Positions 42,790 to 44,429 of a stretch of 64,000 nt of DNA are shown here, in pieces (the first letter of the stretch is position 1; every line of letters starts with the position of its first letter). The stretch comes from Candidatus Babeliales bacterium (GTDB taxonomy: Bacteria > Babelota > Babeliae > Babelales > Vermiphilaceae): the NCBI GenBank assembly GCA_963743635.1, contig CAVUQO010000003.1:416001-480000 (forward strand). Reading direction: 5' to 3'. Position numbers and translations under genes: made by a program. The notes beneath the pieces are model-generated. The model saw only the letters and a list, made by a program, of their open reading frames with translations, ran no database searches and was not told the origin of the DNA.

Positions 42790-43290
42790 ATGAACTATAA
42801 AACAATAATGATATGTGCAGTAATTGGTGCATTGATGCAGAATGCATGGGGGATGCAAGGTGGAAATCCACAATACATGCCGAGCGCGCCATTAATGAGT
42901 CCTTCGAATTCTATTCGCCCCAGCAATAATCCGCCGCCATATTCGAATAATAACGCAACGCTGCCAGCTGTAAATAACAATAATAATTCAGTATCAAGAC
43001 AAGAGGTCAGTGAAATTGCTCAATTACTTGCTGCGATTCAAACACTGAATCTGAATGTCGAAAATATGAACGAGCAGCTGAATGCTAGAATGGCCAAGAT
43101 GGAGAAAAAAATAGGCACAGTAGAAGAAAAAGTTGAAGGGATGACGAAATATTCGCAGTACATTAGTCTCTCCGATCTTAAAAAAAGCATTGAGGAGGTT
43201 AAGCACAAAGTTGATCATACTGAAAAAGTCGTTGATGGCGTGAAGTCGAAAGTAGACAATATTTGGTACAAAGTAGACAGAATCAAATAG
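42790..43290 (+). CDS. Array gene 2: shared leader, PSAP and PPPY motifs, coiled coil
   Basis: MNYKTIMICAVIGALMQNAWG|MQ...PSAP...PPPY. Confidence 0.85.
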   Translation: MNYKTIMICAVIGALMQNAWGMQGGNPQYMPSAPLMSPSNSIRPSNNPPPYSNNNATLPAVNNNNNSVSRQEVSEIAQLLAAIQTLNLNVENMNEQLNARMAKMEKKIGTVEEKVEGMTKYSQYISLSDLKKSIEEVKHKVDHTEKVVDGVKSKVDNIWYKVDRIK

Positions 43291-43370
43291 ACGTCGTCTT
43301 ACTTCTCAATATAAAATAAGAACATAACCATGCTGTCGTACGTGTGGCGGGTTTTTTGAAGGGAACAATC

Positions 43371-43766
43371 ATGAACTATAAAACAATAATGATATGTGCA
43401 GTAATTGGTACATCGATGCAATCTGCGTGGGCGATGGATGCGAATCAGAATGCGAACGATAACAACAAACCAGTCGAGATCAGTGAAATTGCTCAATTAG
43501 CAGCTGCGATGGCGGCAGCCTTTAAAGGTCTAGAGACTACTATTGTTGAAGATCTTAGGGAGATTCGGAAAGATCTTCGGGAAGTTCGGCAAGATCTAAA
43601 GACTACTATTGTTGAAGATGTTCGGGAGGTTCGGAAAGATCTTCGGGAAATTCGGCAAGATCTAAATACTATTAATGGGGGTAATCTGCAACTGCAGGAA
43701 GATCTAAAGGCTATTAATGCGCAACAGCAGAAGTTAATCGATGCGTTTGGAAAAAAGATAGAATAA
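43371..43766 (+). CDS. Array gene 3: shared leader, heptad-repeat coiled coil
   Basis: MNYKTIMICAVIGTSMQSAWA|MD; internal 66-bp duplication. Confidence 0.85.
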   Translation: MNYKTIMICAVIGTSMQSAWAMDANQNANDNNKPVEISEIAQLAAAMAAAFKGLETTIVEDLREIRKDLREVRQDLKTTIVEDVREVRKDLREIRQDLNTINGGNLQLQEDLKAINAQQQKLIDAFGKKIE

Positions 43767-43819
43767 AATTCGAAGAGAGAGTCATGGCGCTTCCGTTTAC
43801 GTTTAACAACTACCTCGGA

Positions 43820-43950
43820 CTTCGTCGATACGTGCTTGCAGCACTACTCCCATGCTTCGCCATCCTTCGACAGGCTCAGGACGAGCGGATCCGTTCATGG
43901 TAGTCCTGAGCGAAAAGCGAAGGGTCGAACCACGCAGGGCAGGCAGGACT
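43820..43950. repeat. Nested cluster of REP-like palindromes
   Basis: TCCTTCGACAGGCTCAGGACGAGCGG plus flanking partial units. Confidence 0.75.
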
Positions 43951-43970
43951 AAAGACCGAAAGGAAATATC

Positions 43971-44429
43971 GTGAACTATAAAACAATGATATTGTGGGCT
44001 TTGCTCGCAGGAACGATGCAAAATGCGTGGGGGATGCAAGGTGGAAACCCACAATACATGCCGAGCGCGCCATTAATGAGTCCTTCGAATTCTATTCGCC
44101 CCAGGAATAATCCGCTGCCATATTCGGATAATAATGCAATGCAGCCAGCTGTAAATAACAATAATAATGCAGTATCAGAACAAGTAATCAGTGAAATTGC
44201 CCGATTAACTGCTGCATTAGAAGCATTGAATACGAGAGTTGCGAATATGCATAGTCAGCTGAATGGTAGAATGACTTGTATGGAGCAACAAATTAAAGAT
44301 GTAACAAAATCGGTAGAAGAGTTGAAAGGCAGCCTTGATCGTATTGGAGAAGCAGTTGCTTACGTTAAGCACAACGTTGAGCGCGGAGAAGACAACGGCG
44401 CCAACATACGTTATCCAAGTCCCGAGTGA
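43971..44429 (+). CDS. Array gene 4: paralog of gene 2 (PSAP retained)
   Basis: GTG start; leader ending QNAWG|MQGGNPQYMPSAP. Confidence 0.85.
   Translation: MNYKTMILWALLAGTMQNAWGMQGGNPQYMPSAPLMSPSNSIRPRNNPLPYSDNNAMQPAVNNNNNAVSEQVISEIARLTAALEALNTRVANMHSQLNGRMTCMEQQIKDVTKSVEELKGSLDRIGEAVAYVKHNVERGEDNGANIRYPSPE

Follow-up and report, generated by a model that had tools for sequence, protein, structure and literature searches.

Several bacterial protein families keep one leader while their mature parts vary, among them the proteins with YSIRK and KxYKxGKxW signal peptides, the paralogous lipoproteins of Borrelia and the effectors of phytoplasmas. A second point of comparison is provided by the late-domain motifs, for which we use the definitions given in portions of two articles (PMC10159163; PMC2172688). 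According to an excerpt of the work on Toxoplasma gondii, an intracellular parasite, the secreted protein GRA14 carries PTAP and YPX(n)L, and PTAP is needed to bring TSG101 to the vacuole (PMC8700025). Excerpts of other articles describe contacts of proteins from intracellular bacteria with ESCRT, namely of Chlamydia CT619 with Tsg101 and Hrs (PMC5787570), of the Wolbachia outer membrane lipoprotein Wbm0152 with Vps2 (PMC12707686) and of EsxG/EsxH in Mycobacterium (PMC10159163).

Sections of one article present Candidatus Babeliales as a phylum whose members are obligately intracellular in protists and have putative effectors that bear Sec signal peptides (PMC6561590). The same sections describe Chromulinavorax destructans, in which signal peptides occur on 44% of CDS and on 78% of ankyrin proteins, as well as vesicles and replication in the cytoplasm of the host (PMC6561590). 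Type II secretion genes are listed as core to TM6 in an extract of a further report (PMC4776705).

Here we characterized a tandem array of six genes in a stretch of 64,000 nucleotides (the window). In a preliminary description, PSAP and PPPY motifs in array genes 2 and 4 had been read as possible ligands for host ESCRT and NEDD4 proteins.

A tandem array behind one signal peptide

The organism was placed by its GlmU, which grouped with a Candidatus Babeliales bin and two other bins (SH-aLRT 100) in a single-gene tree of 46 rows (45 of 80 loci fetched), the bins being named by their submitters. GlmU identity to the Babeliales clade was 50%, as compared with about 40% to the next phyla, and no rRNA was found within the window. 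Judged from these data, the organism most likely belongs to Dependentiae (Candidatus Babeliales). To our knowledge, Dependentiae are widespread and almost unstudied protist parasites for which no effector mechanism is known. A host-directed role of array proteins is plausible because Babeliales are obligate intracellular bacteria of protists. The array has the following layout.

42387–42779, + strand: array gene 1 (repeat family D1), 130 aa, bearing the signal peptide of the family; alternative GTG start at 42354
42790–43290, + strand: array gene 2, 166 aa; signal peptide, then disordered head, then coiled coil of two helices
42790–42852, + strand: signal peptide of gene 2, MNYKTIMICAVIGALMQNAWG; predicted cut before M22, from the A-x-G pattern
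43333–43350, + strand: terminator-like hairpin followed by a T-run, 3' of gene 2; a consensus match only (4 sites versus 2.6 expected in shuffles)
43371–43766, + strand: array gene 3, 131 aa, same signal peptide, SEIAQLAAA module; identical to P0027
43971–44429, + strand: array gene 4, 152 aa, GTG start, architecture as gene 2; the same as P0001
44520–45074, + strand: array gene 5, 184 aa, family signal peptide, unrelated mature part, NNNNKK tail
45106–45528, + strand: array gene 6, 140 aa, signal-peptide variant MTYK...MQNAHA followed by M, unrelated mature part

The signal peptide and the upstream ribosome-binding region were common to the six tandem genes at the DNA level. The mature part of gene 1 is unrelated to that of gene 2, ends in NNNN and clusters with P0034 and P0062, while gene 5 clusters with P0029, P0031, P0036, P0037, P0050 and P0060. 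In gene 3 the proline block described below is absent, and a 66-nt internal repeat is present (listed under repeat families D4 and D5). The GC-rich spacer between genes 3 and 4 folded no better than its shuffles (z -0.89); a 20-nt probe from this spacer was unique within the window. A megablast search of the plasmid collection with the array gave no match.

The leader of the family has the consensus MNYKTIMLCAVIGGSMQNAWG, followed by M, and is 21 residues long. Inspection by eye revealed a basic MNYK, a 12-residue hydrophobic core (TIMICAVIGALM) and QNAWG before M. Among family members, A occupied position -3 in 52 of 56 and G or A occupied position -1 in 55 of 56. Sec export with cleavage by signal peptidase I calls for a basic n-region, a core of 10–15 hydrophobic residues, small side chains at -3 and -1 and no lipobox Cys, and the leader shows all of these. 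A lipoprotein reading was rejected because the region of the cut has no Cys in the proper register. In the AlphaFold2 model the signal peptide of gene 2 was a helix (residues 3–19). The junction in gene 2 reads AWG and then, across the predicted cut, MQGGNPQYMPSAPLMSPSNSIRPSNNPPPYSNNN. The preliminary description had referred to a mature N-terminus of gene 2; the signal-peptide features that this implies are present in the sequence, and the cleavage position is a prediction from the A-W-G that precedes the cut. The proteins are presumably cleaved and may then pass the outer membrane. Beyond the signal peptide, the products of genes 2 and 4 lack membrane spans.

When 1.84 billion representatives were searched with a profile, 58 proteins came up at E<=1e-3. 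The motif that ends the signal peptide was found in 56 of the 63 sequences examined, or in 59 of 66 when all six window genes were included, and the mature parts of these 59 members fell into 23 single-linkage clusters. A second profile search, with alignment A4 against a set of 5.8 billion protein clusters, yielded 15 proteins, none of them new. When species-representative genomes were scanned with the peptide pattern of the block, 75 stretches matched and none encoded a relative, which leaves both the genome of the window and any block-bearing relative outside that collection. We take the family to be undescribed and lineage-restricted, with a near-invariant signal peptide, unrelated mature parts and an organization in tandem arrays. 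The near-invariant signal peptide may serve as a sequence tag with which to fish the secreted repertoire of the lineage from metagenomes.

A conserved block in a disordered head

The motifs of genes 2 and 4 lie in proteins with the following parts.

42853–42993, + strand: disordered head of gene 2, residues 22–68, rich in Pro, Asn and Ser
42874–42921, + strand: conserved 16-residue block of gene 2, YMPSAPLMSPSNSIRP, with PSAP (42880–42891) at its N-terminal edge
42931–42942, + strand: PPPY of gene 2, within the Asn-rich linker; not conserved
42997–43284, + strand: helical stalk of gene 2, residues 70–165, with helices at 70–122 and 127–165
44055–44102, + strand: copy of the conserved block in gene 4, with PSAP at 44061–44072
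44112–44123, + strand: PLPY of gene 4, which fits neither PPxY nor LPxY

PSAP and PPPY in gene 2, and PSAP and PLPY in gene 4, were found on the sequence at the positions given in the preliminary description. The head of gene 2 is indeed a Pro/Asn-rich stretch (N12, P9 and S7 of 46 residues). The motifs also precede a coiled coil, as had been stated, in so far as the AlphaFold2 model predicts low confidence over residues 21–65 (pLDDT <50) and then the two helices of the stalk, in which block means of pLDDT are mostly >90. The ELM-type pattern for UEV ligands is.P[TS]AP., and P[ST]AP occupies residues 31–34, within the predicted disordered segment, in gene 2 and in gene 4. An ALIX-type YPx(n)L pattern fits the YPNAPL of P0007, P0008 and P0010; genes 2 and 4 have YMPSAPL at this point.

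The stalk of gene 2 opens with a SEIAQLLAAI module that is common to genes 2, 3 and 4 (43003–43037, 43476–43510 and 44184–44218; repeat family D5). Scans of the six array genes against Pfam and NCBIfam gave only hits of coiled-coil type, all below curated cut-offs; these included the major outer membrane lipoprotein (E 0.019) and IcmG/DotF (E 0.001), both far below the cut-offs. The best hits of a sequence profile against the PDB were coiled coils, among them long-helix segments of influenza HA2 (E 3.9e-5 to 0.04), and were rejected as homologs because coiled-coil composition inflates such scores. Foldseek gave 0 matches in the PDB at E<=0.001, and the top feature score in the ESM Atlas, 0.75 to an unnamed cluster, was below lead level.

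The 46-residue disordered segment of gene 2 was shuffled 200,000 times, with its composition preserved, to assess how often the motifs arise by chance. P[ST]AP appeared in 1.9% of shuffles and PPxY in 6.7%. Both appeared in 0.09%, which makes the pair unlikely from composition alone in this one protein; the figure overstates the significance because any known motif in about 60 proteins was open to choice. For gene 4, P[ST]AP arose in 1.2% of shuffles. Across the window, in open reading frame stretches that reach 120 codons or more, P[ST]AP was hit twice, in genes 2 and 4 only, and PPxY three times, once in gene 2.

Genes 2 and 4 do not count as independent witnesses, because near-identical head DNA lies beside diverged flanks: their identity is 94% over codons 22–68 and 100% in the block, and falls to 71% for the signal peptide and 70% for the first helix. 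Such a mosaic is the typical pattern of recent gene conversion, as far as sequence comparison can tell. Within the exchanged tract, 8 of 31 codons outside the block had changed and 0 of the 16 in the block (chance about 0.04). The change from PPPY to PLPY, a single base (CCG to CTG), lies in this tract, where 6 of the 8 changed codons are non-synonymous.

Twelve proteins in the databases searched carry the block, which reads Y-x-P-(S/N)-A-P-L-M-S-P-S-N-S-I-R-P. The tetrapeptide was strict P[ST]AP in 8 of the 12, PNAP in three and ASAP in one, and the twelve residues downstream, APLMSPSNSIRP, were nearly invariant and surpassed the tetrapeptide's first two positions in conservation. By column, A, P, L, S, P, N and S were found in 12/12 and M, I, R and P in 11/12, counts that are partly fixed by the search pattern and on which alignments A1 and A4 agree. 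PSAP as four residues did not exceed its flanks in conservation, LMSPSNSIRP being equally or more conserved. The proposal that PSAP is conserved in homologs thus holds in part: the tetrapeptide lies within a block that is kept while the flanks diverge, and its strict form is found in only 8 of the 12. A reading as UEV ligand leaves this pattern unexplained, because downstream residues outdo the first two positions of the tetrapeptide.

The block was joined to C-termini of the gene 2 type, the P0008/P0016 type, the P0012 type and the P0007 type, was doubled in two homologs (P0004 and P0006), and always lay 5–40 residues past the predicted cut, before a poly-Asn linker. Several of the 12 sequences are mutual recombinants (P0003/P0005 and P0004/P0006 share halves). 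Because the sequences are few and partly recombinant, some of their apparent conservation may reflect recent spread of a cassette, not long purifying selection. As only 12 of the 59 members carry the block, the family as a whole is not characterized by it. Outside this set, the unrelated family member P0023 has PSAP 13 residues after the cut, and over their first 50 mature residues the 47 members without the block contain SAP 4 times, versus 0.6 expected (4 was reached in 7 of 2000 shuffles).

The second motif fared differently, and the suggestion that PPxY is conserved in homologs was not borne out. Of the 12 proteins with the block, 3 have PPxY; across the family it was counted in 5 of 56 members, and LPxY in 0 of 56. 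At the position of the PPPY of gene 2, relatives have PLPY, LLPH (in two), PLPH or a gap, and four of the five PPxY-bearing family members share a different module, NSNNPPPYAPSSAPL. From these alignments, the PPPY of gene 2 is probably a lineage-local variant of a drifting linker, not a functional WW ligand. Recruitment of NEDD4 by the proteins of genes 2 and 4 is unlikely.

Possible roles of the block

The reading that we favour, with a probability of roughly 0.55, is that these proteins are exported coiled-coil stalks that display a proline-rich block as a peptide ligand and belong to a lineage-restricted family. The mature parts of this tandem-array family would be exchanged like cassettes behind one Sec-type signal peptide. 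After export and presumed cleavage, a head of about 45 residues would be disordered and a stalk of about 95 residues would form two helices and would probably pair or bundle with other chains. The functional element of the head would be the 16-residue linear block and not the PSAP tetrapeptide as such, since it is the block that appears to be kept while flanks diverge and to recur ahead of three or more distinct C-terminal parts. It would act as a candidate proline-rich ligand, held outside the bacterial cytoplasm on a coiled-coil stalk. Because Dependentiae live inside protists, the partner would more likely be a host than a bacterial protein. If so, the block would provide a testable handle on how Dependentiae handle their hosts. 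The UEV domain of ESCRT-I is one candidate reader among several proline-recognition modules.

Mimicry of late domains, in which an oligomer at the host cytosol or vacuole face would engage UEV (Vps23/Tsg101) through PSAP and the WW domain of a NEDD4/Rsp5-type ligase through PPPY, seems to us very unlikely. The P[ST]AP pattern does fall within a predicted disordered segment, with strict matches in 8 of 12 proteins and an invariant A-P; the block is doubled in two homologs, as is often the case for multivalent ligands; P0023, whose mature part is unrelated, has a PSAP near its cut; and the lineage probably lives inside eukaryotic cells. Excerpts of the literature also supply a parasite precedent, the need of Toxoplasma GRA14 for PTAP to recruit TSG101 (PMC8700025), and a bacterial Tsg101 binder, the N-terminus of Chlamydia CT619 (PMC5787570). 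However, PNAP (3/12) and ASAP (1/12) fall outside P[ST]AP, and the residues downstream of the tetrapeptide are kept better than its first two positions, which UEV binding does not require. Gene 4 lacks PPxY, as do 9 of the 12 proteins with the block, and in the family it occurs in 5/56; the change from PPPY to PLPY lies in a tract with mostly non-synonymous change (6/8 changed codons), and a cleaved Sec signal would lead to the periplasm first. In addition, the portions seen of a 2023 review (PMC10159163) and of a 2025 paper on pathogens and ESCRT (PMC12707686) name no bacterial late-domain protein, and because such excerpts name none the prior for late-domain mimicry is low. What supports the specific claim for ESCRT and NEDD4 is a match of four letters, and one of its two motifs fails conservation. 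It is likewise improbable that the block binds ESCRT-I at all, and we give little credence to the form of this idea in which the block is a host-directed linear motif, displayed in multiple copies on a secreted stalk, and a protist ESCRT-I recognizes its (P/A)-(S/N)-A-P-L core through the UEV domain. If the UEV reading were true, these would be the first bacterial proteins to recruit ESCRT by a late-domain-type ligand, and late-domain mimicry would have arisen in a bacterial parasite of protists.

Host contact would play no part if the proteins were envelope or periplasmic spacers, or chaperone-like, and the block docked on peptidoglycan, an outer-membrane protein or a secretion machine. A long coiled coil behind a Pro-rich segment resembles periplasm-spanning proteins, and this resemblance, the Sec signal, the small size and the sub-threshold coiled-coil hits, which include the models for the major outer membrane lipoprotein and IcmG/DotF, all speak for such a role. 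Nevertheless we consider it unlikely, since there is neither a lipobox nor a Cys at the cut, no family match rises above cut-off, and arrays of paralogs with 23 unrelated mature parts are not expected of housekeeping envelope proteins. This pattern, together with the failure to find relatives in species-representative genomes, better fits fast-evolving interaction proteins. Alternatively, the block could be a signal for processing, modification or sorting, that is, an O-glycosylation site, a protease site or a second-step targeting element. Its position shortly past the predicted cut and ahead of the poly-Asn linker is consistent with this, and is comparable to that of the host-targeting motifs of Plasmodium or oomycete effectors; the Ser-rich sequence next to Ala/Pro and the excess of SAP in non-block members (4 versus 0.6 expected) point the same way. 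Yet neither an oligosaccharyltransferase nor a dedicated protease was seen within the window, and because only 12 of 59 members carry the block it cannot be the general export signal of the family. The chance that the block is such a signal is, in our view, slight.

Comparison with known systems

The ligand display that we favour can be set against the systems outlined at the outset. Gene 2 shares with the viral late domains (PTAP in HIV-1 Gag p6, PTAPPEY in filovirus VP40) and with the PSAP of cellular Hrs the occurrence of P[ST]AP and PPxY within about 15 residues in a disordered segment. It differs from them in having a predicted cleavable Sec signal and in having no budding or membrane-binding domain; here, moreover, the tetrapeptide belongs to a 16-residue block, of which it is the less conserved edge, and PPxY is not conserved. 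GRA14 is a eukaryotic protein of the vacuole membrane whose C-terminus has been shown to face the host cytosol, whereas genes 2 and 4 are bacterial and show no membrane span past their leader. CT619, Wbm0152 and EsxG/EsxH are unrelated in sequence to genes 2 and 4 (no Pfam or NCBIfam hits above cut-off), and the excerpts of the work on them do not describe action through a late-domain motif. Wbm0152 is an exported envelope protein, as the proteins of genes 2 and 4 may be.

The arrangement of one kept leader and variable mature parts recalls the YSIRK, KxYKxGKxW, Borrelia and phytoplasma families, from which the array leader differs in sequence and in phylum; it has no Pfam or NCBIfam model. 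A further comparison is with Chromulinavorax destructans, of the same probable phylum. The sections of its description that we draw on mention no family with a single near-invariant signal peptide or a proline block, and report many orphan proteins with Sec signals that are proposed to act on the host (PMC6561590).

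A tandem gene array behind one leader

Six genes, all on the + strand, occupy the region 42387-45528:

42387-42779, +, array gene g1
42790-43290, +, array gene g2
43371-43766, +, array gene g3
43971-44429, +, array gene g4 (GTG start)
44520-45074, +, array gene g5
45106-45528, +, array gene g6

Their products have near-identical first 21 residues (MNYKTIM-CAVIG-SMQNAWG, then M), and the likeness of their DNA extends into the ribosome-binding region (repeat family D1, 6 copies of 91 nt, 67-80% identical to the first copy). The family N-terminus, as read from the sequence, comprises a basic start and a 12-residue hydrophobic core; position -3 is A in 52/56 members and position -1 is G or A in 55/56, while column counts over the 56 members revealed no lipobox cysteine. 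This layout is that of a Sec signal peptide, presumably cleaved by signal peptidase I. Across the array genes (42387-45528) and the database relatives P0002-P0062, the signal peptide was far better kept than the mature parts (e.g. K4 in 55/56 and Q17 in 51/56).

The signal peptide was present in 59 of 66 sequences (the six window genes and 60 distinct matches), and the mature parts of these 59 fell into 23 single-linkage clusters (blastp, E ≤ 1e-4). The mature parts of g1, g5 and g6 were unrelated to that of g2, and g3 had only the SEIAQLAAA stalk start in common with it (repeat family D5). The family is new but of a familiar kind, in which secreted paralogs share one conserved leader. C-terminal tails rich in Asn and tipped with Lys (NNNN, NNNNKK, NNNKN) occur in many members. 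In g3, two tandem 66-nt units (43525-43656, +; 91% identical) encode a repeated LREIRKDLREVRQDL-type helix segment; the relative P0023 carries a similar repeat, together with its own PSAP near the N-terminus.

The 204-nt g3-g4 spacer (43767-43970) has a GC content of 53%, higher than that of the window (42%) and of the other array spacers of at least 31 nt (26-43%). No second copy was found in the window, its folding was no stronger than that of shuffled sequences, and it may represent an insertion. The GTG start of g4 lies directly behind it. Directly upstream of the array, an RtcB gene is broken (41000-42293, +), with pieces in all three frames and in-frame stops between them; its N-terminal piece (41000-41263) corresponds to Pfam RtcB positions 5-78 and its C-terminal piece (41598-42293) to positions 204-426. 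The preceding archease gene (40092-40487) is apparently intact.

The proline-rich block of the disordered head

The preliminary description had noted a PSAP motif, a ligand of the Tsg101/Vps23 UEV domain, and a WW-binding PPxY motif ahead of a coiled coil in g2. Both were confirmed in g2 (PSAP, 42880-42891; PPPY, 42931-42942), as were PSAP (44061-44072) and PLPY (44112-44123) in g4. An AlphaFold2 model of g2, built from a 16-sequence alignment (mean pLDDT 72, pTM 0.32), bore out the arrangement: behind a signal-peptide helix (3-19), residues 21-65 were unstructured (pLDDT <50), followed by two long helices (70-122 and 127-165; block-mean pLDDT mostly >90). Both motifs are therefore placed in a disordered head that precedes a helical stalk. 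Pfam and NCBIfam scans gave no family above cut-off, the sub-threshold lists consisting of coiled-coil families, and Foldseek of the model against the PDB gave no matches at E ≤ 0.001. A PDB profile search yielded only weak coiled-coil matches, the best being the long helix of influenza HA2 (E 3.9e-5). HA2 matches recurred for the stalk profile (positions 78-136 of alignment A4), but homology was rejected and they were taken as coiled-coil resemblance.

In 200,000 shuffles of the 46-residue g2 head, P[ST]AP arose in 1.9%, PPxY in 6.7% and both in 0.09%. The joint chance is low, but the choice was free among all known motifs and all proteins of the 64-kb window, which makes conservation the more telling test. 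Nine relatives of g2 were found among 5.8 billion protein clusters, and 58 proteins at E ≤ 1e-3 by a profile search against 1.84 billion representatives; a later profile search added no relatives. Twelve proteins contained a 16-residue proline-rich block with PSAP or a variant of it at the N-terminal edge: g2, g4 (P0001), P0002-P0008, P0010, P0012 and P0016.

Residues in the block; column counts are partly fixed by the search pattern, and alignments A1 and A4 give the same picture
PSAP position 1: P 11, A 1 of 12
PSAP position 2: S 9, N 3 of 12
Next A, P, L: 12/12 each
M: 11/12
Following S, P: 12/12 each
Next S: 11/12
N, S: 12/12 each
Final I, R, P: 11/12 each

Conservation of PSAP thus held in part: its A-P is invariant within a conserved block, but the first two positions vary. 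Strict P[ST]AP occurs in 8/12 proteins, with PNAP in P0007, P0008 and P0010 and ASAP in P0012; what is conserved is therefore the block of ~16 residues, in which PSAP is the edge that varies more. At least four kinds of C-terminus follow the block, and P0004 and P0006 each have it twice; it behaves as a movable module. Among family proteins outside the block-bearing set, P[ST]AP was found once, in P0023, and is no family trait; SAP was observed 4 times against 0.6 expected (at least 4 in 7/2000 shuffles).

The proposed NEDD4 recruitment by PPxY failed the same comparison. Residues aligned to the g2 PPPY read PLPY (g4), LLPH (P0003, P0004), PLPH (P0012) or gap, and PPxY occurred anywhere in 3/12 block-bearing proteins and 5/56 family members, 4 of these 5 having another module, NSNNPPPYAPSSAPL, in common.

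Nucleotide identity between g2 and g4 was 71% in the signal peptide, 94% over codons 22-68, 100% in the 16-codon block and 70% in the first helix. Such a mosaic points to a recent swap of the head between g2 and g4, which are not independent witnesses. Eight codons differ in the exchanged tract (2 synonymous and 6 non-synonymous), all outside the block; one change, CCG to CTG, converts PPPY to PLPY. By our own arithmetic, the chance of 0/8 changes hitting 16 of 47 codons is ~0.04. The tract thus lends mild support to constraint on the block, and none to constraint on PPPY.

Probable lineage of the organism and other genes of the window

The window (42% GC) carries ordinary bacterial housekeeping genes plus many orphans. 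Its GlmU shared 50% identity with the GlmU of a Candidatus Babeliales bin and with that of a second bin (1.09-Mb chromosome), and 47% with the GlmU of a third (on a 0.87-Mb contig); the next phyla stood at ~40%. In a GlmU tree of 46 rows (45 of the 80 loci fetched), the window and these bins formed a clade with SH-aLRT 100. Affiliation to Dependentiae is likely, judged from this one gene and submitter-named bins. The available text of two reports describes Dependentiae as intracellular bacteria of protists (PMC12172432, PMC4776705), and type II secretion genes as core to the phylum (PMC4776705). For Chromulinavorax destructans, signal peptides on 44% of CDS, including 78% of ankyrin proteins, are described, as are vesicle shedding and replication in the host cytoplasm (PMC6561590, in part). 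In this lineage a Sec signal therefore does not speak against action on the host; crossing of the outer membrane by the array proteins is putative.

Elsewhere, a 317-aa ORF (54984-55937, -) contains four stretches matching PF00137, the domain of ATP synthase subunit C, and adjoins a gene for F0 subunit A (55937-56674); it is unusual for a bacterial F-type enzyme to have a c subunit with several fused hairpins. A class A penicillin-binding protein is apparently split (31304-33275, +) into two overlapping ORFs, with the transglycosylase domain at 31304-32026 and the transpeptidase part at 31962-33275, which could reflect a frameshift or sequencing error. A class A bacterial RNase P RNA (29154-29516, -; 222.9 bits) overlaps the start of a PASTA-domain ORF called at 28403-29218, so the true start of this ORF is probably further downstream. 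No tRNA genes were found in the 64 kb.

Possible roles of the block and known ESCRT-directed proteins

We favour, with a probability of about 0.55 for the whole, a reading in which the g2 and g4 proteins would be exported coiled-coil stalks presenting a disordered head, whose functional element would be the proline-rich block, a putative peptide ligand. Its partner would more probably be a host protein than a bacterial one, and PPPY would be incidental.

A structural role within the envelope is unlikely, given the array of unrelated paralogs and the absence of these proteins from representative genomes. We give little credence to a processing, glycosylation or targeting signal, since the block is found in just 12/59 members. 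Late-domain mimicry proper, with recruitment of ESCRT, is just as improbable: PNAP and ASAP variants occur, residues downstream of PSAP are conserved more strongly than the motif, and PPxY is lost in relatives; the putative topology of the proteins also counts against it. The preliminary interpretation is supported in part: the probable protist parasite does encode an exported, disordered proline block that is conserved. Recruitment of ESCRT by PSAP is unproven.

Searches for bacterial late-domain proteins in the literature outside subscription journals found none. Bacterial proteins that touch ESCRT include Chlamydia CT619, which binds Tsg101 via its N-terminus (PMC5787570), Wolbachia Wbm0152, which acts on Vps2 (PMC12707686), and Mycobacterium EsxG/EsxH (PMC10159163); in the available portions of these reports, use of a late-domain motif is described for none of them. 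A non-viral late-domain motif is described for Toxoplasma GRA14, whose PTAP is required for TSG101 recruitment (PMC8700025, in part).
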